A stretch of DNA of 40,313 nt, taken from the sequence record MT496969.1. The stretch is one strand, 5' to 3'. Both the position numbers and the translations under genes were made by a program. The DNA is from Escherichia phage Mt1B1_P3. Positions 3,108 through 40,313 of this stretch are shown one piece after another. Every line of letters begins with the position of its first letter. Within the stretch, counting starts at the first letter, position 1. A model generated the notes under the pieces. It was not told where the DNA came from and ran no database searches. It saw only the letters and a list, made by a program, of their open reading frames with translations.

Positions 3108-3165
3108 AGTTGCCCTCCCGGTTTATCAGATTTCACGTAGAGTCGCCTCCACTAGTTAGTGTTAA

Positions 3166-3205
3166 CCATAAAGGCCACTACATATAGTAATGACCTTGAG
3201 TCTAA
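3166..3205 (-). promoter_or_regulatory. Putative RNase III processing hairpin (R18.5-like)
   Basis: Conserved element ATAAAGGCCAC-N10-ATGACCTTGAGTCTA also at 26682-26719 and 33882-33921; imperfect stem AAGGUCA/UGGCCUU in minus RNA; located between genes 18 and 18.5 as in T7. Confidence 0.45.
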
Positions 3206-3208
3206 CAC

Positions 3209-3472
3209 TTATTGAACACCATACCCGGTGTCATTATCTTCTGTAGCTGAGAGCACCTTATCGTACTCTGCGTTCAGGGCCTCCATATCAGCGAGCGTCT
3301 TCTCGTCAACAGACACCTTGCTTAACACAAAGTTGTGACGAGCAAGCAGCTTCTCAATGGCGTTGTAGAGCTGAGGTGAACGCTTAGTGTCATCCCGCAG
3401 GTCTTGCAGCATGAGTCGAGCACGTTCAGTATCTAGCATTAAGAGGAACTTCTCTAAGTCCATCTGCGTCAT
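3209..3472 (-). CDS. 18: Terminase small subunit (DNA packaging protein A)
   Basis: 87 aa; size and position match T7 gp18 (89 aa); stop overlaps holin gene start. Confidence 0.8.
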   Translation of the reverse strand: MTQMDLEKFLLMLDTERARLMLQDLRDDTKRSPQLYNAIEKLLARHNFVLSKVSVDEKTLADMEALNAEYDKVLSATEDNDTGYGVQ

Positions 3473-14265: not shown

Positions 14266-14294
14266 AAAGTCTCCTTATAACCTTAAGGGCCTAT

Positions 14295-14317
14295 AGTCCC
14301 TATAGTGATAGTTAAGG
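14295..14317 (-). promoter_or_regulatory. Phage RNAP promoter phi13, TSS about 14300
   Basis: Minus strand CCTTAACTATCACTATAGGGACT; embedded between 12-bp perfect inverted repeats (14285-14296 / 14323-14334). Confidence 0.65.
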
Positions 14318-14341
14318 TAAATCTATAGGCCCTTCAATAAG

Positions 14342-18835: not shown

Positions 18836-18937
18836 ATGATAATTCTCCTATTCAATTGAAAGATAAAGTTTATTACTTACTGTATGCCCAATCCGTATGG
18901 ACTGAAGTAATAGGGAAACCTTGAGTCTATCTCTTGG

Positions 18938-18960
18938 TCTCCCTATAGTGATAGTTTAGT
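18938..18960 (-). promoter_or_regulatory. Phage RNAP promoter phi10, TSS about 18943
   Basis: Minus strand ACTAAACTATCACTATAGGGAGA; initiating GGGAGA identical to T7 class III promoters; directly upstream of capsid gene. Confidence 0.7.
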
Positions 18961-18961
18961 C

Positions 18962-19882
18962 CTACAGGCTTGAGGCAGCTACCTTAGCGCGAACTTCCAT
19001 AGTGTATTTAGCGTCACGCAGGTATCGCGGGTCACTCATGGCCTTAATCATGTCAGCCTTGGAGCTGAATGCTTCGGTCTGAGGAGCCTTAGGTGCGACC
19101 ACAGGTTTAGCCTGAGTGGTGATGGTACGCTGAGGTTTAACACCCACAGCTTTACCCAGAGTCTTGCCAGCCAGATTCAGCAGAGCTTTGGTAGTCGCAA
19201 TGTCCTTACGAACGATAGCAGCTTCCAGTGCTTCACGAGTTGATGGGTCGTTGGACTCAAGGTGTGACAGGATGCGATTAAACTGTTCAGCTCCGCCAGC
19301 GTAGCGAACCACACCAGCAGCATACTGTTCAGCCAGAGCTTCCTGACCACGGACAAACGAATCTACGAAACGCTTGGTGTAACCTGCTTCCTGCAACTTA
19401 GCGTAGGATGCGTCAGACAGCTTACCGTCCTTGGCGTATTCAGCCTTGATAGCGGTAATTTCATCAGCAGTGACCTTGCCGGCTTCTACAGCAGAAGACA
19501 CCATGTCGTCAAATGCAGCTTCGTTTTCATCCAGAGCGGTGACACTTTCGGTCAGCTCTTTAGGTGCATCACCAAGTTCTACGAACTCAGGTTGCTCACC
19601 ATCTGTCTCAGACTCTTCGTCATCTGACTCGTGGTCTTCTTCACCTTCAGTCTCTTCGACGTTTTCGTCTTCTTCGGTCGCCTCTTCGTTTTCGGCTTCC
19701 AGTTGCTTGAAGGTAATAGCGTCATCGCCATCACGAACAGCTACGTCCTGTTCAAGCATAGACTTCTGGTGTTCGTTCAGGTCCTCAACGGAACCAGTGA
19801 TTGCATTAGAGCTAACGCCGAACTCGGCATAAACTGATTGAGACATTAAGTCATTCTCCTTTAAGTCGTTAATAGGAAACAC
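18962..19882 (-). CDS. 9: Capsid assembly (scaffolding) protein gp9
   Basis: 306 aa, strongly acidic with Glu/Asp-rich tract; T7 gp9 is 307 aa at same position. Confidence 0.88.
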   Translation of the reverse strand: MFPINDLKENDLMSQSVYAEFGVSSNAITGSVEDLNEHQKSMLEQDVAVRDGDDAITFKQLEAENEEATEEDENVEETEGEEDHESDDEESETDGEQPEFVELGDAPKELTESVTALDENEAAFDDMVSSAVEAGKVTADEITAIKAEYAKDGKLSDASYAKLQEAGYTKRFVDSFVRGQEALAEQYAAGVVRYAGGAEQFNRILSHLESNDPSTREALEAAIVRKDIATTKALLNLAGKTLGKAVGVKPQRTITTQAKPVVAPKAPQTEAFSSKADMIKAMSDPRYLRDAKYTMEVRAKVAASSL

Positions 19883-19936
19883 AACAACCTGCCCTCCCGT
19901 TACGGCTGGCTATGCGTTCACTCACTCAAGTTGTGT

Positions 19937-19959
19937 TGTTCCTATAGTGATAGTTTAGG
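19937..19959 (-). promoter_or_regulatory. Phage RNAP promoter phi9, TSS about 19942
   Basis: Minus strand CCTAAACTATCACTATAGGAACA upstream of scaffold gene; overlaps the portal gene stop. Confidence 0.65.
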
Positions 19960-22717: not shown

Positions 22718-22778
22718 CTTGAATCTCCTCTTTAAGTTAAGACTAAAGTCTATCTTATAGTCATATCTTAGGTCCTAA

Positions 22779-22801
22779 AGTCCCTATAGTGATAGTTTAG
22801 T
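22779..22801 (-). promoter_or_regulatory. Phage RNAP promoter phi6.5, TSS about 22784
   Basis: Minus strand ACTAAACTATCACTATAGGGACT. Confidence 0.65.
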
Positions 22802-22927
22802 GTTTCACCTATGGATGACTGTGGGATTAATAGGATATGACTATCGGTTAGACTCAGTGTTTAGGGCGGTTGTTCGACCCGAACCACTTGTACATGCAGT
22901 AAAGGGCCAGAAGTCCTGCCCAGTAGA

Positions 22928-26658: not shown

Positions 26659-26681
26659 GGTTAATCCTCCGTTTAGTCTAA

Positions 26682-26719
26682 TCATAAAGGCCACTCGCTG
26701 TGAATGACCTTGAGTCTAG
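26682..26719 (-). promoter_or_regulatory. Putative RNase III processing hairpin (R4.7-like) upstream of DNAP
   Basis: Second copy of ATAAAGGCCAC-N-ATGACCTTGAGTCTA element. Confidence 0.45.
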
Positions 26720-26721
26720 AC

Positions 26722-28601
<1,880 letters not shown>

Positions 28602-29365: not shown

Positions 29366-29825
29366 TGTACACCACCAGTTCTACTACCACAAGATTCAGA
29401 TGTGACTGGAAGCGCTGTGCGTCAGTCGTGTGCATCTGTAGCCGCTTGTGGTTGAATACGTGAGAGTTGCTAATCTTCACGTACACTTCGTCAGGCTTAC
29501 CGTGGACGATGAACGTCTGGCCTACACCAATCTTGTTGATGGTCAGGACTTCACGTTTAACGGTGACAGGAGGGACGCTTGAGGCTGGTAGGACCTGAGG
29601 TTTATCCTCTACGATTTCCTCAAGATTTTCGTTTACAACCCACGCCCCCCACATACCATCAGGCTGAGTGTTATGACCTGCTGCTCCGTGTTTGTATGTG
29701 CCACGCTCAGTGGATTCCACCAGAGTATGTCCGTTTGATGGTGCAGGGTCTTTCGCACATTTCGTAACGATAGTGCCTTTAGGCCACCCGTAGCCACTAA
29801 CCTTAAGTCTATATTTCTGAGTCAT
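29355..29825 (-). CDS. Hypothetical 156-aa protein inserted between endonuclease I and lysozyme
   Basis: ATG overlaps gp3 stop (TGATG) with AAGGAG 7 nt upstream; 3' end overlaps lysozyme start by 11 nt. No recognised motif. No T7 gene at this position. Confidence 0.7.
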   Translation of the reverse strand: MTQKYRLKVSGYGWPKGTIVTKCAKDPAPSNGHTLVESTERGTYKHGAAGHNTQPDGMWGAWVVNENLEEIVEDKPQVLPASSVPPVTVKREVLTINKIGVGQTFIVHGKPDEVYVKISNSHVFNHKRLQMHTTDAQRFQSHLNLVVVELVVYNGK

Positions 29826-33398: not shown

Positions 33399-33661
33399 TA
33401 TGCTTTGCTCCATGTGTCGATATGGTCAGCGAGACCGTTGAGGTAGTTGGTTGCAGTATTATACAGCACGTCTTCATCGTAGTGTGTGAAGGTCTCAAGC
33501 GCGAAGATGTTACCAGCTCGGTCCTCCACCCTGAGTCTCATGCACTCTTGGCGTGACACATGGTCTTGAAACTCCTGAGATATAACAGCGAAGTCTAACT
33601 GGTAGAGCCTGTTACACGCTGCTCTGAAAGCGTTGAGGTTGCCACTATAAAGTCGGCCCAT
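33398..33661 (-). CDS. 1.2: gp1.2 (inhibitor of host dGTPase in T7)
   Basis: 87 aa; MGRLYSGNLNAFRAA...CMRLRVEDRAGN...HYDEDVLYN closely matches T7 gp1.2. Confidence 0.9.
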   Translation of the reverse strand: MGRLYSGNLNAFRAACNRLYQLDFAVISQEFQDHVSRQECMRLRVEDRAGNIFALETFTHYDEDVLYNTATNYLNGLADHIDTWSKA

Positions 33662-33665
33662 TTGG

Positions 33666-33845
33666 TTATGCTCCTACGAAGTATTTCTCTTGGTTGACCA
33701 GAGAGTCTTTACCTTCAGCATTACGGAAAGCGCCTTTGACACCACCACCACGCTTGGTCTTGTTCAGCTTGCGTCCATTCGGGATGTAGTCTTCAGTCTG
33801 CTGACGTTCACGAATGCGCTCGAAGTTGATAGTGTTCTGATACAT
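33666..33845 (-). CDS. 1.1: gp1.1-like small basic protein
   Basis: Hand translation MYQNTINFERIRERQQTEDYIPNGRKLNKTKRGGGVKGAFRNAEGKDSLVNQEKYFVGA (59 aa); GRKLNKTKR block as in T7 gp1.1. Below the 60-aa track cutoff. Confidence 0.7.
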   Translation of the reverse strand: MYQNTINFERIRERQQTEDYIPNGRKLNKTKRGGGVKGAFRNAEGKDSLVNQEKYFVGA

Positions 33846-33881
33846 GTGGTTAAATCTCCAGTAGTGTTTATTTAAGGTTAA

Positions 33882-33921
33882 TCATGAAGGCCACGACTTT
33901 GAGTCATGACCTTGAGTCTAA
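33882..33921 (-). promoter_or_regulatory. Putative RNase III processing hairpin (R1.1-like)
   Basis: Third copy of ATGAAGGCCAC-N11-ATGACCTTGAGTCTA element, in the leader of the phi1.1 transcript. Confidence 0.45.
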
Positions 33922-33941
33922 TCCTATAGTGATAGTTTAGG
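33919..33941 (-). promoter_or_regulatory. Phage RNAP promoter phi1.1, TSS about 33924
   Basis: Minus strand CCCTAAACTATCACTATAGGATTA. Confidence 0.65.
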
Positions 33942-34016
33942 GTTAACCTCTTCTGCGTTGGATTAAAGTGAATACTGCGAGTGCTCCTAGCCACAAGGCC
34001 AGTGACTGTAGGTCTG

Positions 34017-34232
34017 TCATTTGGCCTGCTCCAGCTTGGACACTGCGTCCTTCAGGTACTTCTCGTGGCTGGACTCGACCAGATCTACAAGAGTCTTGAA
34101 CGGGATGTTAAGCTGCTTGGACATCTTGGTCGGGATGACCGTGGTCTTCACCAGACCCGCGCCATTGTGTTCTGTTACGGTCACGATTTGAGTCCCACCA
34201 TTAACGCCAGTATGCTTGTGTGCAAATTTCAT
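34017..34232 (-). CDS. Hypothetical protein (71 aa) between RNAP and gene 1.1
   Basis: ATG with AAGGAG RBS; no recognised motif; no counterpart in T7 at this position. Confidence 0.6.
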   Translation of the reverse strand: MKFAHKHTGVNGGTQIVTVTEHNGAGLVKTTVIPTKMSKQLNIPFKTLVDLVESSHEKYLKDAVSKLEQAK

Positions 34233-34244
34233 AGCTCTCTCTCC

Positions 34245-34475
34245 TTATCTAATTCTAGGGAATGACGGATACTGAGTGCGCTCGTCTTCCATCCACGCGT
34301 TAAGCACTTCATCAATCGAAGCTATAAGGTTGTACTCGTTAGGTTGAATCCACCCAGTCACACCAGCTTGTAGTCTGTCTCGGAGAATGACTAAATCCTT
34401 ATAAGTAAGCTCTACATGGCAACGCCCCGACCCATCGTTGAATGCCTTGTTGTGTGCTACAAGTTTCATTGACAT
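34245..34475 (-). CDS. Hypothetical protein (76 aa) immediately downstream of RNAP
   Basis: ATG with AGGAG RBS 16 nt after the RNAP stop; no recognised motif. Confidence 0.6.
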   Translation of the reverse strand: MSMKLVAHNKAFNDGSGRCHVELTYKDLVILRDRLQAGVTGWIQPNEYNLIASIDEVLNAWMEDERTQYPSFPRIR

Positions 34476-34490
34476 ATACTTCTCCTGCTG

Positions 34491-37172
34491 TTACGCGAAT
34501 GCAAAGTCTGAAGACAAGATGTCTTCGATATTCAGTTTACCTTTCTTCGGAAGCTCAGGCAACTTGTCGCGCTGGCTCTCGTGAAGCTGGTATTCAAACT
34601 GCTCGTAGAAGTCAAGCAGCACATCGTTATCGCGGTAGGTCTCGACCATCGTCTCACGGACGCCACGGAACAGATACTCAGCGTCAGCCGGGATGGTCCC
34701 GAAGCTATCGTGAATCACTGCGAAGGACATCACGCCATACTTGCGGTGCGTGTGGACTACAGTCTTGCGTAGGTGGCTACCATCTTGTGAGTGGACGAAG
34801 TTCGGGCTAATGCCTGACTCCTGCTTGTGCTTGTCCAGCTCTTTCTTCGTGCCTTTGTTGACCGTAGGCTGAAGGTTGAATGACCCTAAGAACATCAGAT
34901 TCAGACGAGTGGTATCCTTCTTGCGGTATTCCTGCCAGACCGGGAAACCATCAGGTGTTACCCAGTGTACCGGAAGGCAAGGCTTCAGTATTTCTCCAGT
35001 CTTCTTGTCCTTCACTTCAGCAGCCAGCAGCTTGGCAGCACCCTGAAGCCACTTCATCGCGTCAACCGCAGCAACTACGGTCACGCTCACAGCTTCCCAA
35101 ATCATCTTAGCCATGAAGCGGGACGCTTGGCTTGGTTCGGTGAACATAGCGCCAGACCCTGAGTCAATCGCCGGCATCACGATGTCCTCATAAACTTGGT
35201 CTGCGAAGCCGTACTCTTTCGACCCATAGGCCAGAGTCATTACTGAACGCTTAGTGACCTTGCGTGACATGCCGTAAGTCAGCCACTGCCGGGCCAGCTC
35301 TCGTGTCCCCAGCTTGAGGCGTTCGGTAATCTCACCAGTTTTCTTGTCCTCGTGAGTTACCATCTCGTTGTCTGTGCCGTTAACCAGCAGGACTTTAAGC
35401 TCTTCCTCAATGCGGTCGGACACGATTCGGTAGATGTCTTGGACCTTACCGGAAGGCGTTAGGTTTACTGCATGTCCACCTATGTGATCACGAAGCATCG
35501 CGCTAAAGTGCTGAATCCCTGAGCATGACCCATCGAACGCTATCGGTAATGAGCAGGAGTAAGACAATCCGTGGTGCATTACACCAGCATACTCGAAGCA
35601 GAACGCAAGGAAGCAGAACGGAGAGTCTAACTTGCCCCACCACTCAATGCTATCCATCGGTGCCTTAGCAGCAGCCATAATGTTGTCGTGGTTGTCTTCC
35701 ACCCACTTGATGCGCTCCTCGAAGGTGACTTTATCAACACCCGCGCAGTTTGCACCATGGACCTTCAGCCATTTGAAACCGTCAGCACCAATAGGCTTAC
35801 CGACTGCCAGAGTAAGGAGACCTTTCTGCATGTCGTTACCCTGAGGGTTGAACATCGGAACAGCGTAGACGCGCCCACGCCAGTCCATGTTGTACGGGAA
35901 CCAGATGGCCTTGAACTGAGAGAACTTGTTCGCTTGGTTAACGATAAAGCTCAGTGACAATCTTCGCGACTGTCGGGCCTTCTCGCGGCGATAGATACCA
36001 GCAGCAGCCTTCTTCCATGCCTTGAGTTCCTCCTCAGTCTCACCCGCATAGTCTTCAGGCTTCAGTGGCTCCATCTGAGGGATGTCATCAATAGGCGTGT
36101 TGTTCAACTTCTCGACCATGTTCACCACGTCCAGTACCTTCTTGTTCACTTTCCAAGGTGTATTCTGGATGATATTCACAGCGTCATAGACTTCAGGCAT
36201 GTATACGTCTTCATAACGTGCCACCGCTGATTTAGACCCTAAGCGAATCAGGGGTAGCGGTCTGCGACCTTTGGCCCAGTACCCACCACCTACGACACCA
36301 GTCCACGGCTTAGGTGGAACGACGCAAGGCTGGTAGACTGGAGCTATACCCGCAAGGCTGAATCCTCGTTGTGCCATCTTCTTGACCCAGAAGTCTGACA
36401 GGTGGACCATCTCTACGTCAGCCGCTGCATTGCCAGCACCGTACCGCTTAAGCTCGACCAGTTGTGTTGACTGGATGACAATCTCAAGCATCTTGATGCC
36501 AACGTGGACAGCCTCTGTAGGACTCCAAGTTCCCCACGCATCTTCCAGTTGGCCTTGCTCCAGCATGGATGTCTCGACCGCTTGCATGTAGGCTTTCTTG
36601 TAGGACGCCCCGGCCCGCTTATTCAGGTTATCAGCTATCGCCTTCTTGAAGTGCTCTTTCTCTTTGTCACGGATGCGACCGAAGCGGATTTCGTCCTCAA
36701 GTGTGCGACCTATCGCGGAGGCCATCGGTGTAATCGGTATCCCTTCAGGCTTTACCAGCTTGGAGAGTATGACCTTCAGTATGATGACCGCAGCAGACTC
36801 GCAAGGGATACGCAGAGAGCGGTCCTTGACGGCCTTCTCTTCGGTGCTTAACATGGTGAACGCTACGCTAGGACGAGAGGTTGAAAGCTTCCCGTCTGGA
36901 CCTTCATACCACTCCCTGACGGCTTGCGCAATCTTAGGAACCAGAGTCTGCATCAAAGGCTTGGCGACCTGATTGTCTGCCAGTTCCCCGCGCTCAGTCT
37001 GTCGCTCAAGGTTTTTGATGAAACGTCGCTCGCCTTCAGTGTATGCCTCATGCTCAAGCTGAAGCTGCTTGACTGCAAGGTCCTTCCCGTAGTGGTCAGC
37101 CAGCAGGTTAAACGGCTCAATGGCGTTCGACACATCAGAGAAGTCGTGTTTATCAATAGAGATGACGCTCAT
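34491..37172 (-). CDS. 1: Single-subunit DNA-dependent RNA polymerase (T7 RNAP family)
   Basis: 893 aa; collinear with T7/T3 RNAP (KNDFSD...PFNxLADHYG, WFPYNMDWRGRVYAVPMFNPQGNDMxKGLLTLA, FDGSCSGIQHFSAMLRD, VMTLAYGS, IHDSFGT, C-terminal SDFAFA). Confidence 0.98.
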   Translation of the reverse strand: MSVISIDKHDFSDVSNAIEPFNLLADHYGKDLAVKQLQLEHEAYTEGERRFIKNLERQTERGELADNQVAKPLMQTLVPKIAQAVREWYEGPDGKLSTSRPSVAFTMLSTEEKAVKDRSLRIPCESAAVIILKVILSKLVKPEGIPITPMASAIGRTLEDEIRFGRIRDKEKEHFKKAIADNLNKRAGASYKKAYMQAVETSMLEQGQLEDAWGTWSPTEAVHVGIKMLEIVIQSTQLVELKRYGAGNAAADVEMVHLSDFWVKKMAQRGFSLAGIAPVYQPCVVPPKPWTGVVGGGYWAKGRRPLPLIRLGSKSAVARYEDVYMPEVYDAVNIIQNTPWKVNKKVLDVVNMVEKLNNTPIDDIPQMEPLKPEDYAGETEEELKAWKKAAAGIYRREKARQSRRLSLSFIVNQANKFSQFKAIWFPYNMDWRGRVYAVPMFNPQGNDMQKGLLTLAVGKPIGADGFKWLKVHGANCAGVDKVTFEERIKWVEDNHDNIMAAAKAPMDSIEWWGKLDSPFCFLAFCFEYAGVMHHGLSYSCSLPIAFDGSCSGIQHFSAMLRDHIGGHAVNLTPSGKVQDIYRIVSDRIEEELKVLLVNGTDNEMVTHEDKKTGEITERLKLGTRELARQWLTYGMSRKVTKRSVMTLAYGSKEYGFADQVYEDIVMPAIDSGSGAMFTEPSQASRFMAKMIWEAVSVTVVAAVDAMKWLQGAAKLLAAEVKDKKTGEILKPCLPVHWVTPDGFPVWQEYRKKDTTRLNLMFLGSFNLQPTVNKGTKKELDKHKQESGISPNFVHSQDGSHLRKTVVHTHRKYGVMSFAVIHDSFGTIPADAEYLFRGVRETMVETYRDNDVLLDFYEQFEYQLHESQRDKLPELPKKGKLNIEDILSSDFAFA

Positions 37173-37240
37173 ACTTAAAGTCCTTGTTATTAGTCTTTCA
37201 CTTAGAGTCTCTTTGGTCTTTCACTTGTAGTCTTAGACCT

Positions 37241-37263
37241 TTAGTCCTAAAGTGATAGTTAAG
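37241..37263 (-). promoter_or_regulatory. Degenerate phage-promoter-like sequence upstream of the RNAP gene
   Basis: Minus strand GACTTAACTATCACTTTAGGACTAA: upstream half matches consensus, but -3 and +3 deviate; functional status unknown. Confidence 0.3.
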
Positions 37264-37269
37264 TCATAA

Positions 37270-37530
37270 TCACTTGCATATCAGTTGGTTAGCGTGGAGA
37301 TGGCTGAAGTCACCATTGGTCGTGTGCTTGATGGTTGACCGTTGGTCCATCGCCTTCCAGCCTGAGACTAAAAGTTTACCATCGTCAGTGATCGGTCGTC
37401 CACCATACGCCAGACACATCAGTTCGTACTCATGGCCCTCAGCCTTCATGCGGCGATGTAAGAACTCGTCACGCTGTATTTGCTCTATACGGCTACGGAT
37501 AGATGGCTTGTTAATGTATACTGTTTTCAT
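37270..37530 (-). CDS. Early hypothetical protein (86 aa)
   Basis: ATG overlapping stop of upstream ORF (TAATG); no recognised motif. Confidence 0.55.
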   Translation of the reverse strand: MKTVYINKPSIRSRIEQIQRDEFLHRRMKAEGHEYELMCLAYGGRPITDDGKLLVSGWKAMDQRSTIKHTTNGDFSHLHANQLICK

Positions 37531-37727
37531 TACAGTTTGCTCCCAATAGTTGCTATATCCCAGACGTTCGCTAAGTTGCGCATGAATCGTCCGTTAGGTT
37601 GACGTACAGTCCAGCGGCCCAGACGTACATAGTTTAATTTGTATACTCTATGCGCTTTATTGATGTCTCTCACCAGCACGTAGGCGATAAGTCCATAGCC
37701 TATGGCTATCAATAGTGCAAGACTCAT
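37530..37727 (-). CDS. Early hypothetical small membrane protein (65 aa)
   Basis: N-terminal hydrophobic helix MSLALLIAIGYGLIAYVLV followed by basic region; weak RBS. Confidence 0.5.
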   Translation of the reverse strand: MSLALLIAIGYGLIAYVLVRDINKAHRVYKLNYVRLGRWTVRQPNGRFMRNLANVWDIATIGSKL

Positions 37728-37835
37728 AGTGATTTCCGTTTAATACAGTCGTATATCCCCCAAGCTATCAGAAAGATGACCGGAGATAAGCATACCAAAT
37801 GTCCAACACTCATAGTTAACCTCTATCAATTTAAG

Positions 37836-37888
37836 TGGTAATCTTTGAGGCCACCTATCAGTCGATGACCTCTCGTCTATCACTCAGC
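37836..37888 (-). promoter_or_regulatory. Putative RNase III processing hairpin (early region)
   Basis: AAGTGGTAATC...GAGGCCACC...GATGACCTCTCGTCTATCACTCAG; same family as elements at 38270, 39066, 39386. Confidence 0.45.
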
Positions 37889-37902
37889 TAGGCCTTACAC
37901 GG

Positions 37903-38250
37903 TTACACTTCCACCGATACAGTGGTCATCTTGCTTACAGTCAGCCCACCAGCAAGCTCAACCGCATAGCGTATCGCCTCCTCTTTGGACTTGAAGTCCT
38001 TTCCTGCAAGGTGGTAAATATCACCTGTTATTACCTTAGAAGGCCGGCGACTCACCGCAATGGCGTTTTCCATGGCAAGCTCACCACGGATATACTGAGT
38101 AAACCAGCGCTTCACCGAACTCGTTCCCACCCCGAACTTTTGGGCGGTTTCAGTCACCCTATCCATAACTCCCTCAGGCAGAGAGGTGTAGTAGTTAACA
38201 ACGTTGAGTTTAAATGCTACCGAGAATACATTGCGAGTTTTAGCAGTCAT
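37903..38250 (-). CDS. Early protein with transposase-type helix-turn-helix N-terminus (115 aa)
   Basis: FSVAFKLNVVNYY...TETAQKFGVGTSSVKRWFTQY resembles the IS3/IS911 OrfA HTH signature (FSxEFKLxVV...G.S...V..W..Y); GAAGGA RBS. Confidence 0.65.
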   Translation of the reverse strand: MTAKTRNVFSVAFKLNVVNYYTSLPEGVMDRVTETAQKFGVGTSSVKRWFTQYIRGELAMENAIAVSRRPSKVITGDIYHLAGKDFKSKEEAIRYAVELAGGLTVSKMTTVSVEV

Positions 38251-38269
38251 TATTCTTTCCTTCTGTAGT

Positions 38270-38328
38270 TATCAAGTGGTAATCACTCAGGCCACCATGT
38301 AGATGACCTGTAGTTTAACACTCAGTAC
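38270..38328 (-). promoter_or_regulatory. Putative RNase III processing hairpin (early region)
   Basis: Minus RNA can pair CAGGUCAU with GUGGCCUG (8 bp incl. G-U) around a 7-nt loop, flanked by imperfect lower stem. Confidence 0.45.
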
Positions 38329-38352
38329 CCACCTGTCAGCGTTATGGTCAGG

Positions 38353-38520
38353 CTATGGTAAATATTTCTTGTCCTCAGCGTGTAGGCTGTCGTGTATGCG
38401 CTTGCGTCTCCTGTAGACCACTTTCAAGAGGCGCATAGACTCCTCGTGGTTTAATCTCCCGGTCTTGACCATAAGCCGGGCGTTGGTGACGTGGTGCTGG
38501 CAGAGACCATAAGTTACCAT
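38353..38520 (-). CDS. Small early ORF (55 aa), hypothetical
   Basis: Hand translation MVTYGLCQHHVTNARLMVKTGRLNHEESMRLLKVVYRRRKRIHDSLHAEDKKYLP; ATG overlaps Ocr stop (TGATG), GAGGAGG 10 nt upstream. Confidence 0.4.
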   Translation of the reverse strand: MVTYGLCQHHVTNARLMVKTGRLNHEESMRLLKVVYRRRKRIHDSLHAEDKKYLP

Positions 38521-39050
38521 CACTCGCAGTCCTCCTCAGCAGCCTCAGGATCGAACACTACGTTATCGTTGATGTCTTCGACCTGCATGTGAAAACCTTC
38601 CTCATAGAGTTCTTTTGCACATGCAATAGCCTCGCAAAGTGATACAGCTGCCTCAATTATCTCGCCTGTTCTAGTGTCAACTACCCAATATTCAGCCTTT
38701 TCGTCCTCCTCTTCAGCCTTTTCGTCTTCCTCTTCAGCCTCAAACCAGACCACCTCAGAGCTATTAGACACATCGTTATACAGTGCCTCATAGATGCGAG
38801 CTTGTAGTATACGCGTTACGTCCTTGGTCTCAGGCATCAGCCCAGAGTCTTCGAACTCATTGTCAATACCATCAGCAGCCATCACCGTGTAAATCTCGTG
38901 GTAATAATGCGGAACATTACCGTCTACGACCTCATGCAGCGCATCACTGTAGTCATCGCCTTCAGCTATTTCGTCGCACTGAATACGCTCATTGAACAGC
39001 TCAACGGTTGCAGCCAGCAGCTCATAGTATGCGTTAGCGTTACGTTCCAT
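38520..39050 (-). CDS. ocr: Ocr-like DNA-mimic anti-restriction protein (gp0.3) with C-terminal extension
   Basis: Core [47 protein letters not shown] matches T7 Ocr ([46 protein letters not shown]); 176 aa vs 117 aa in T7, with duplicated EEDEKAE and about 55 extra C-terminal residues. Confidence 0.9.
   Translation of the reverse strand: [176 protein letters not shown]
38690..38740. repeat. 21-bp tandem duplication inside ocr (encodes EEDEKAE x2)
   Basis: cagccttttcgtcctcctctt / cagccttttcgtcttcctctt adjacent copies on plus strand. Confidence 0.8.
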
Positions 39051-39065
39051 AGTTATATCCTCTCA

Positions 39066-39124
39066 GTTGTTAGTGACTATCAGTCAGGCCGCTATAAGTC
39101 TAACGACCTGTAGTTAATCACTCT
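39066..39124 (-). promoter_or_regulatory. Putative RNase III processing hairpin (R0.5-like)
   Basis: GTTAGTGACTATCAGTCAGGCCGC-loop-ACGACCTGTAGTTAATCACT; imperfect long hairpin between first early ORF and ocr. Confidence 0.45.
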
Positions 39125-39378
39125 CAGTTAGCGAAATAAGGAGCTGAGACGCCCGCTGTAGGACTCACGGTTATCTGCGAATCTATCAGGTAGGTCTCGT
39201 TGTCTATGCGCACAGTATCTATGCTGTAGTTGCTGAACGGCTTGCTTGAGACCTTGCGCACTACCACACGGTGACGCGCTCCTGTCATCTCTTTAAGCTG
39301 AATCCACGCATAACCTTTAGTGTTCACGAATACTTCATTGTGATTAGTGATTGTGCTTAAGTGTTTCATAGTGTTCAT
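39124..39378 (-). CDS. First early ORF (84 aa), hypothetical
   Basis: Open frame fills the interval between two RNase III-like elements upstream of ocr; no obvious Shine-Dalgarno; no recognised motif. Confidence 0.45.
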   Translation of the reverse strand: MNTMKHLSTITNHNEVFVNTKGYAWIQLKEMTGARHRVVVRKVSSKPFSNYSIDTVRIDNETYLIDSQITVSPTAGVSAPYFAN

Positions 39379-39385
39379 CCGTTAA

Positions 39386-39449
39386 GTTAGTGACTATCAG
39401 TCAGGGCCTTCAGATGTAGACTCAAAGGCCCTGTAGTTAGTCGCTATCT
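39386..39449 (-). promoter_or_regulatory. Putative RNase III processing hairpin (R0.3-like) in early leader
   Basis: Perfect 8-bp inverted repeat AGGGCCTT (39403-39410) / AAGGCCCT (39425-39432) with 14-nt loop, flanked by imperfectly complementary arms. Confidence 0.5.
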
Positions 39450-39678
39450 GCGTACATTAAGAGTTTATCCAGATTGTTAAAGAGCATTGTTGGCTGTCCA
39501 ACTCGGGGTATTGCGTAGTTCCCAACGTTCTCTGTTACCGCGCTATAGGTAGTAACTTAGTATCCGACAATCAGACCTTCTTCACTCGGTGAAGCCCGGC
39601 CCCTCAATTTACTCTTAGTGAGGCGGTTAGAGTGTACCTGCTACCAATTCCGTGGTGGCGTCTTACTGCTTTAGATTC

Positions 39679-39708
39679 ATAATACTTTAATTATATACTT
39701 CTTGTCAA
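39679..39708 (-). promoter_or_regulatory. Candidate host sigma70 early promoter
   Basis: Minus strand TTGACA (plus 39703-39708) then 18 nt then TATTAT (plus 39679-39684); correct orientation for early genes. Only one of the expected multiple early promoters could be picked out by eye. Confidence 0.35.
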
Positions 39709-39999
39709 CTACTTTCTGTCGGTTGCCTGTTGTTCGTATGTCTTACAGGCTGACTACTTAACCGGACCGGACCGGCGTCTTCACTATCCGGTTGTTGCCG
39801 TGTCGTGTTGACGGAAGCTATTAGGCCATATCCTTGACCTATAGTCAATAGGTAATTTGAAATAATACTGATTAAGCTATCGTCGGCCTCATGGTGTAAG
39901 AGGATATAGTCTTTGACTAACATGTCTTGGACCTTAAGTCTATAGCTCTGTGTCTAGTAACTGTAGATCTATGACTGTAGGTGTTGGTGTCTTATGGTT

Positions 40000-40076
40000 G
40001 AGACTGTAGGTTAGTGAGACTGTAGGTTAGTGAGACTGTAGGTTAGTGAGACTGTAGGTTAGTGAGACTGTAGGTG
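40000..40076. repeat. Tandem 16-bp repeats (gagactgtaggttagt x4.8) adjacent to right DTR
   Basis: Four exact copies plus a partial one, preceded by a degenerate copy at 39971-39983. Confidence 0.9.
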
Positions 40077-40111
40077 TAGGACGTAATGTTATACTATAAC
40101 ACTATACAGAT

Positions 40112-40313
40112 AGAGACTCAAAGAAGACCTATAGCCTCTACCTATCGTCCTTCCATAAGCCATAGCCTAGACCTATCGTTGACCTGAAGTCCTGACCATC
40201 GGTCCAACCTTATGACAGACTGGCTGTGACTGCAAGGAGTAGTAACGGGTAGGGCCTTTGGTCTGGACTTAAAGAGGGCCTATGGGGAGACTTGAGGTTC
40301 TTGAACTGTGAGA
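40112..40313. repeat. Right direct terminal repeat (DTR)
   Basis: Identical to bases 1-202. Confidence 0.85.

Follow-up and report, generated by a model that had tools for sequence, protein, structure and literature searches.

The phage genome analysed here contains seven imperfect two-stem hairpins between its genes which, judged by analogy to phage T7, are very probably T7-type processing signals for the host RNase III. This reading, already put forward in the initial annotation, is supported computationally by a covariance model trained exclusively on T7 sites, by the architecture and positions of the hairpins, by the proximal-box rules of RNase III recognition, by strand specificity and by covariation, with cleavage itself expected from homology. 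The window, i.e. the whole stretch of 40,313 nucleotides, is a complete genome of a K1F-like phage (T7 family, Kayfunavirus) read in reverse. This assignment follows from the collinearity of its minus-strand ORFs with the full T7 gene order from 0.3 to 19 (tblastn against T7), from an exact direct terminal repeat of 202 nt (1–202 and 40112–40313) and from the finding that all long ORFs in the window are located on the minus strand (ORF survey). RNA elements must therefore be judged on the minus strand. The early region is 98.6–99.1% identical to those of the Kayfunavirus phages MT1B1P3 and vB_EcoA_ASO2B and ca. 92% identical to that of coliphage K1F. Just inside the left end of the genome in gene orientation, a 16-nt unit, GAGACTGTAGGTTAGT, is repeated in five tandem copies (40000–40079). 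A consensus scan revealed, as a pattern match only, a sigma-70-type promoter on the minus strand (39679–39708; TTGACA-18-TATTAT, 11/12 positions), which is the probable start of an early polycistronic transcript extending through the four early hairpins to gene 1. This near-consensus promoter directly follows a 72-aa ORF termed 0.1 (39705–39923), an arrangement that puts the ORF ahead of the main early promoter.

The T7-only model was constructed from the sites R0.3, R0.5, R1, R1.1, R1.3, R4.7 and R18.5 and applied unfiltered to both strands of the whole window. The T7 sites were taken at the ten RNase III cleavage coordinates attributed to Dunn & Studier 1983; the T7 records NC_001604 and V01146 carry no annotated RNase III features. 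Seven of these ten sites share the motif ACUCAAGGUC...GUGGCCUUUAU followed by GAU, or a close variant of it, and fold like the elements of the window. The search yielded exactly seven matches, all on the minus strand, with scores of 34–56 bits and E values between 3e-11 and 1e-5, the next match scoring 17.3 bits (E 0.16). T7 R6.5, which was outside the training set, was also recovered. A second model (R2), built from 77 matches in 13 genomes, found the same seven elements at 56–70 bits, no other significant match and no extra canonical member. Against the 4227 families of Rfam, the whole window including the seven sites gave no match (cmscan, gathering thresholds). All seven recurring elements listed in the initial annotation are present, each within about 2 nt of the place given there. 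Three further partial motif matches were discarded: those at 29797–29811 (coding) and 39928–39942 (upstream of gene 0.1) were matched by neither model, and that at 18915–18929, inside the leader hairpin of the phi10 transcript, produced a weak, non-significant match.

All seven hairpins lie on the minus strand, and their scores below refer to the T7-only model unless stated otherwise. Ra (39385–39448; 34.0 bits, E 1e-5; 56.3 bits with R2) is located upstream of gene 0.2 and opens the series of RNase III-type hairpins in the early transcript; it folds with −26.3 kcal/mol (z −4.15), and its upper stem contains the GGG/CCC pairing of T7 R0.3. Rb (39068–39125; 40.0 bits, E 3e-7; z −3.70) has its start at the gene 0.2 stop codon and lies 31 nt upstream of gene 0.3 (ocr). 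Rc (38271–38325; 51.4 bits, E 4e-10; z −3.35) is placed between gene 0.35 and an ORF of 115 aa, and Rd (37830–37887; 36.2 bits, E 3e-6; 60.7 bits with R2; z −2.35) between this ORF and the group formed by orf29, 0.37, 0.38 and gene 1. Re (33870–33928; 47.8 bits, E 3e-9; z −3.71) follows gene 1 and precedes a small gene-1.1-like ORF and gene 1.2. Directly upstream of Re is a phage RNA-polymerase promoter, TAAACTATCACTATAGGATTA (33919–33939, minus strand; seven matches versus none expected in a promoter consensus search), whose +1 position (ca. 33924) falls within the 5′ arm of that hairpin's lower stem. Rf (26670–26726; 49.9 bits, E 9e-10; z −3.61) directly precedes gene 5, which encodes the DNA polymerase, and Rg (3154–3212; 56.0 bits, E 3e-11; z −6.26) is found between gene 18, encoding the terminase small subunit, and gene 18.5. 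The intergenic placement claimed at the outset thus applies to 7/7 sites, which occupy the 8.8% non-coding fraction of a genome that is 91% coding on the sense strand. The only large ORF overlap occurs at Rf, where the ORF of gene 5 is extended upstream to a GTG codon and a small ORF ends in the hairpin.

The hairpins agree with the canonical T7 sites in their two-stem form, the asymmetric 4/5-nt internal loop, the motif described above, the strand and the intergenic placement. The early subtype also occurs in T7: the upper stem of Rc, CAGGUCAUC/GGUGGCCUG, exactly matches the one in R1. The upper stem of Rf is the same as in T7 R1.1, and Re, Rf and Rg, the three late sites, differ only minimally from T7 R1.1, R0.5 and R18.5. 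By position, Rb corresponds to T7 R0.3 in preceding gene 0.3, Re to T7 R1.1/phi1.1 (phi1.1A) in following gene 1 and overlapping the +1 of a phage promoter, Rf roughly to T7 R4.7 before gene 5, and Rg to T7 R18.5 between 18 and 18.5. Differences are concentrated in the early region, where T7 has five sites and the present phage four, at partly different gene boundaries. An R1-like site directly upstream of gene 1 was not found in the window with either model. T7 R1.3 is also without an equivalent in this phage because genes 1.2 and 1.3 overlap.

The sequence motifs on which the initial annotation was based are only partly uniform. The late motif holds for the three sites for which it was claimed, its first half ATAAAGGCCAC occurring at 3168 and 26684 and, with one mismatch, at 33884, and its second half ATGACCTTGAGTCTA being exact at 3190, 26704 and 33906; when up to three mismatches are allowed, ATGACCTTGAGTCTA has 14 matches versus 1.4 expected. 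The early motif fits fully at 39066 and 39386, partially at 38270 and only loosely at 37836. Exact copies of its first half, GTGACTATCAGTCAGG, are confined to 39073 and 39390, the second half, GACCTGTAGTT, is present at 38305 and 39105 and, with one mismatch, at 39428, and the elements at 38270 and 37836 possess a different lower stem, AAGTGGTAATC. The proposed division into an early and a late element type therefore survives at the level of subtypes, but not as two separate kinds of element: since a single model built from T7 recovers both, they constitute one family. Within this family, three subtypes can be distinguished by the 5′ and 3′ sides of the internal loop, ACUC/UAUGA, ACUA/ACUGA and ACGA/AAAGA, and all seven sites fall into the 4-nt/5-nt loop columns of the T7 sites. 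An ACUA loop combined with a C-G pair at proximal-box position pb3 is found in three of the four early sites here and in T7 only at R1; the combination of an ACGA loop with a G-C pair at pb3 in Rd was not seen among the T7 sites; ten matches of the same subtype exist in relatives.

The imperfect stems with internal loops that had been anticipated are formed by 7/7 elements on the transcribed strand, each consisting of a lower stem of 9 bp, an asymmetric internal loop and an upper stem of 9–11 bp. The minimum-free-energy folds contain 19–21 pairs per site arranged in two stems, as in the T7 sites. In the initial annotation, folding energies no better than those of shuffled controls had been named as the result that would speak against the hairpins; all seven fold better than their shuffles (z −2.35 to −6.26), with only 0–2 of 200 dinucleotide shuffles being as good in each case, so that this objection falls away. 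Six of the seven hairpins are 6–13 kcal/mol more stable on the sense than on the antisense strand (e.g. −23.3 versus −10.8 kcal/mol for Rb), an excess due to G.U pairs; Ra, which has no U.G pairs, is equally stable on both strands. The same bias is visible among the 77 matches in 13 genomes, where the sense strand is more stable in 74/77 with a mean difference of −7.5 kcal/mol. In each of the 13 genomes, the matches are confined to one strand, whose identity with the gene strand was established for the window, T7, the annotated relatives and four minus-strand genomes from annotation and blast orientation.

The alignment of the 77 sequences has 93.5% of its cells paired, compared with 73.2% in column shuffles (none of 500 reaching the observed value) and 20–47% when the partners are slid against each other; because the alignment had been fitted to the model, its pairing is somewhat inflated, a bias that the slid controls share. 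Changes on both sides of a pair, i.e. compensatory changes, were detected in 16 of 19 pairs. Positional orthologues of Re, Rf and Rg exist in all twelve other genomes scanned, T7 included, while the number of early sites in the scanned genomes ranges from one to five. The core hairpin of Rg is present in 535 phage records and unannotated in 60 of 60 that were sampled.

The substrate rules deduced by Pertzev & Nicholson (PMC1540722) describe a helix of 11 bp above the scissile bond with a preference for G-C at pb1, A-U or U-A at pb2 and A-U at pb3, strong inhibition by G-C and C-G at pb2, a weak pb4 pair and a distal box of U-A/U.G. In the window, pb1 is G-C and pb2 is A-U in 7/7 sites, and the position of the catalytic antideterminant, pb4, is unpaired or weak in all of them as part of the internal loop. 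At pb3, the late sites Re, Rf and Rg carry A-U and the early sites Ra–Rd carry C-G or G-C, as does T7 R1, which is listed among the T7 RNase III cleavage sites. The 64 distinct matches in relatives comply in the same manner, pb1 being G-C in 64/64 and pb2 A-U in 61, U-A in three and never G-C or C-G. The distal box is composed of UG+UA in Rb, Rf and Rg, UG+CG in Rc and Rd, UG+GC in Re and UA+UA in Ra; it is non-discriminating, as the T7 sites themselves vary alike (CG+UA, UG+CG).

On this basis, cut positions can be predicted by analogy. The cut coordinates of all eight T7 matches fall into one alignment column, which agrees with the geometry of the minimal R1.1 substrate (µR1.1), 11 bp plus a 2-nt 3′ overhang (PMC1540722). 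Transferred to the window, this column predicts cuts after nucleotides 39399 (Ra), 39082 (Rb), 38285 (Rc), 37844 (Rd), 33884 (Re), 26684 (Rf) and 3168 (Rg), where the coordinate denotes the last nucleotide of the upstream product; the cut in Ra would accordingly be placed between 39399 and 39398 on the minus strand. Relative to the preceding stop codon, the hairpins Rb, Rc, Rd, Rf and Rg start at −5 to +27 nt, Re at 88 nt and Ra at 256 nt, and the leaders remaining after the predicted cuts have a length of 20–60 nt with the Shine-Dalgarno sequence included. The early units delimited in this way comprise gene 0.2, genes 0.3 and 0.35, the 115-aa ORF, and orf29, 0.37, 0.38 and gene 1 together with two small ORFs. 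The sites thus do separate units, as had been proposed, but the notion that each early ORF is individually bracketed by them is only roughly true.

We propose the following scenario, in which the cleavage, the place where it occurs and its consequences for RNA stability and translation are all conceived in analogy to T7. E. coli RNA polymerase in the early region and the phage RNA polymerase in the rest of the genome would synthesize long polycistronic transcripts of the minus strand. Each signal would span about two helical turns, composed of the 9-bp lower stem, the 9–11-bp upper stem and the internal loop with 4 nt on its 5′ and 5 nt on its 3′ side. This quasi-continuous helix is expected to be bound by the RNase III dimer, which would recognize in the upper stem both the G-C and A-U pairs of the proximal box and the U.G/U-A pairs of the distal box. 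Owing to the internal loop, only the 3′ strand would be cut, at a point 2–3 nt beneath the upper stem. The complete upper hairpin would thereby remain as the 3′ end of the upstream product and shield it from 3′-exonucleases; in T7, a protective 3′ hairpin is likewise kept on the upstream RNA (PMC3867540). The downstream RNA would begin with a leader of 20–60 nt preceding the next start codon, in which the Shine-Dalgarno sequence would no longer be sequestered by the lower stem. The T7 early precursor contains five RNase III signals, out of ten in the genome, and T7 growth is possible without RNase III; by analogy, the sites of the present phage therefore probably tune expression and are not essential.

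A further difference from T7 concerns the stimulation of the enzyme. The gene 0.7 kinase of T7 phosphorylates and stimulates RNase III, and no homologue of it was found in the window (tblastn, E<1e-5). By comparison with T7, processing in a phage devoid of this kinase would rely on the unstimulated host enzyme.

Apart from the canonical family, several hairpins are associated with phage promoters. An imperfect hairpin of about 21 bp (22745–22855, minus strand; z −4.56) carries the phi6.5 promoter (22779–22799) in its loop, an arrangement also found in T7 R6.5. Its score with the R2 model is not significant (10.9 bits, E 5.4); it is kept in nine relatives and exhibits two compensatory changes in ENT2. 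Such a structure would form in read-through transcripts only. Similarly, a 12-bp stem, AAGGGCCUAUAG/CUAUAGGCCCUU (14283–14335, minus strand; z −3.28), encloses the phi13 promoter (14295–14315) and resembles the promoter-in-loop layout of T7 R13; a compensatory change from G-C to U-A is present in LI10P1, and there is no significant match with the models. The phi10 transcript starts with a 5′ hairpin, GGGAGACC-N15-GGUUUCCC (18912–18942, minus strand; z −5.45), whose stem is identical to that of T7 R3.8, and a 5′ hairpin of the phi9 transcript (19870–19941, minus strand; z −1.8) has a stem of 14 bp and a large loop. The phi6.5, phi13 and phi10 hairpins are thermodynamically significant and conserved but do not match the canonical model significantly (E 2–7), and we consider them as candidate, non-canonical RNase III targets solely in the sense of a lead.

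A few features count against the interpretation of the seven canonical hairpins as RNase III signals, namely the non-optimal pb3 pairs of the four early sites, the equal stability of Ra on both strands together with its missing U.G pairs, and the lack of a 0.7 kinase homologue. This interpretation has to be weighed against other roles of stable stem-loops. In the record of ASO2B (MZ726794; 99% identical), the equivalents of Rb, Rc and Rd at 1060–1095, 1860–1892 and 2298–2333 are labelled 'rho-independent terminator; WebGeSTer', and the stems are indeed stable and G+C-rich at the top, a stable G+C-containing intergenic stem-loop being what they share with intrinsic terminators. The latter, however, are devoid of the lower stem and internal loop present here. 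Moreover, none of the stems is followed by a T-run, the sequences on their 3′ side being UGAUAGUCAC, UGAUUACCAC and similar, and a lenient terminator scan of 33500–40313 reported none of the hairpins in that region. All four early hairpins precede the essential RNA polymerase gene 1, and no promoter-like match lies between Rd and this gene, so that the host polymerase must read through them, and the same motif is found inside late operons just ahead of genes 5 and 18.5. As the elements match T7 cleavage signals and not terminators, a termination function is almost certainly not what they serve, and the labels in the ASO2B record are probably misannotations given that a U-run is missing. It is also conceivable that the hairpins bind RNase III or block exonucleases uncleaved and thus act merely as stabilizers or regulators, to which the deviation from the optimal A-U pair at pb3 in the four early sites would be compatible. 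The same C-G pair at pb3, combined with the same upper stem as in Rc, is nevertheless found in T7 R1, and the late sites hardly differ from their T7 counterparts. Because the position of the catalytic antideterminant is unpaired or weak in all seven sites, we judge a binding-only role to be highly unlikely.

Another explanation would place the primary role at the DNA level, the palindromes and repeats serving as recombination joints for early-gene cassettes and the RNA hairpin being incidental. The 3′ arms of Ra and Rb in fact form an exact direct repeat of 20 nt, GTTAGTGACTATCAGTCAGG (39386–39405 and 39069–39088, plus strand), with gene 0.2 (39124–39378, minus strand) in between. SH3, PE3-1 and TH20 possess only one site, a hybrid, in place of Ra, gene 0.2 and Rb, its junction being located within the 20-nt repeat. 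Gene 0.2 together with one hairpin thus behaves like an indel arising from recombination between two processing sites. In addition, blastn comparison of 37000–40313 with nine related genomes, which are not independent samples, placed 31 of 106 homology-block ends (29%) no more than 15 nt away from the four early hairpins, the hairpins covering 10.7% (ca. 11%) of the region. Intergenic spacers are, however, the expected cassette boundaries anyway. Furthermore, the G.U pairs render the structures strand-specific, as expressed by the sense-strand excess in 74/77 matches, and the pairing of the RNA is kept by compensatory changes. A primary function in the DNA thus appears extremely improbable, and a DNA-level role is more fittingly regarded as a by-product that accompanies the RNA function than as its replacement.

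Taking the hairpins as RNase III signals, we may still ask whether they have acquired such an additional use. The 115-aa ORF (37903–38250, minus strand; no PHROG match), flanked by Rc and Rd, is a cassette of the early region; it is present in SH3 and ASO2B, whereas K1F carries gene 0.36 in its place. We speculate, with considerable reservation, that the hairpins are also portable cassette junctions whose 20-nt arms allow recombination, so that early genes could be moved in and out per processing unit, and that number and sequence of the sites are shaped by a trade-off between processing, exchange and immune detection. The palindrome of a T7 RNase III site triggers, as DNA, the Lamassu DdmABC defence (PMC11707656), and such sites may therefore carry a cost. 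If the speculation were true, a newly acquired early gene would arrive ready for excision as its own stabilized mRNA.

The known mechanism is not changed by these findings; RNase III cutting of long T7 mRNAs into stable units is a well-known feature of T7 that is unannotated here. A literature search for RNase III processing in K1F or Kayfunavirus phages, which did not cover the K1F genome paper, retrieved no relevant paper. The analysis primarily corrects the annotation, since the elements are unannotated in all of the sampled records and called terminators in the closest annotated relative, a label which would mislead models of early expression in K1-specific therapeutic phages. It also offers seven testable predicted cut positions and a covariance model for finding such sites across the Studiervirinae. 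In evolutionary terms, T7 and K1F-like phages have retained a common architecture of RNase III processing, although the latter lack the 0.7 kinase, and the exchange of early-gene cassettes seems to be marked, and may be mediated, by the sites.
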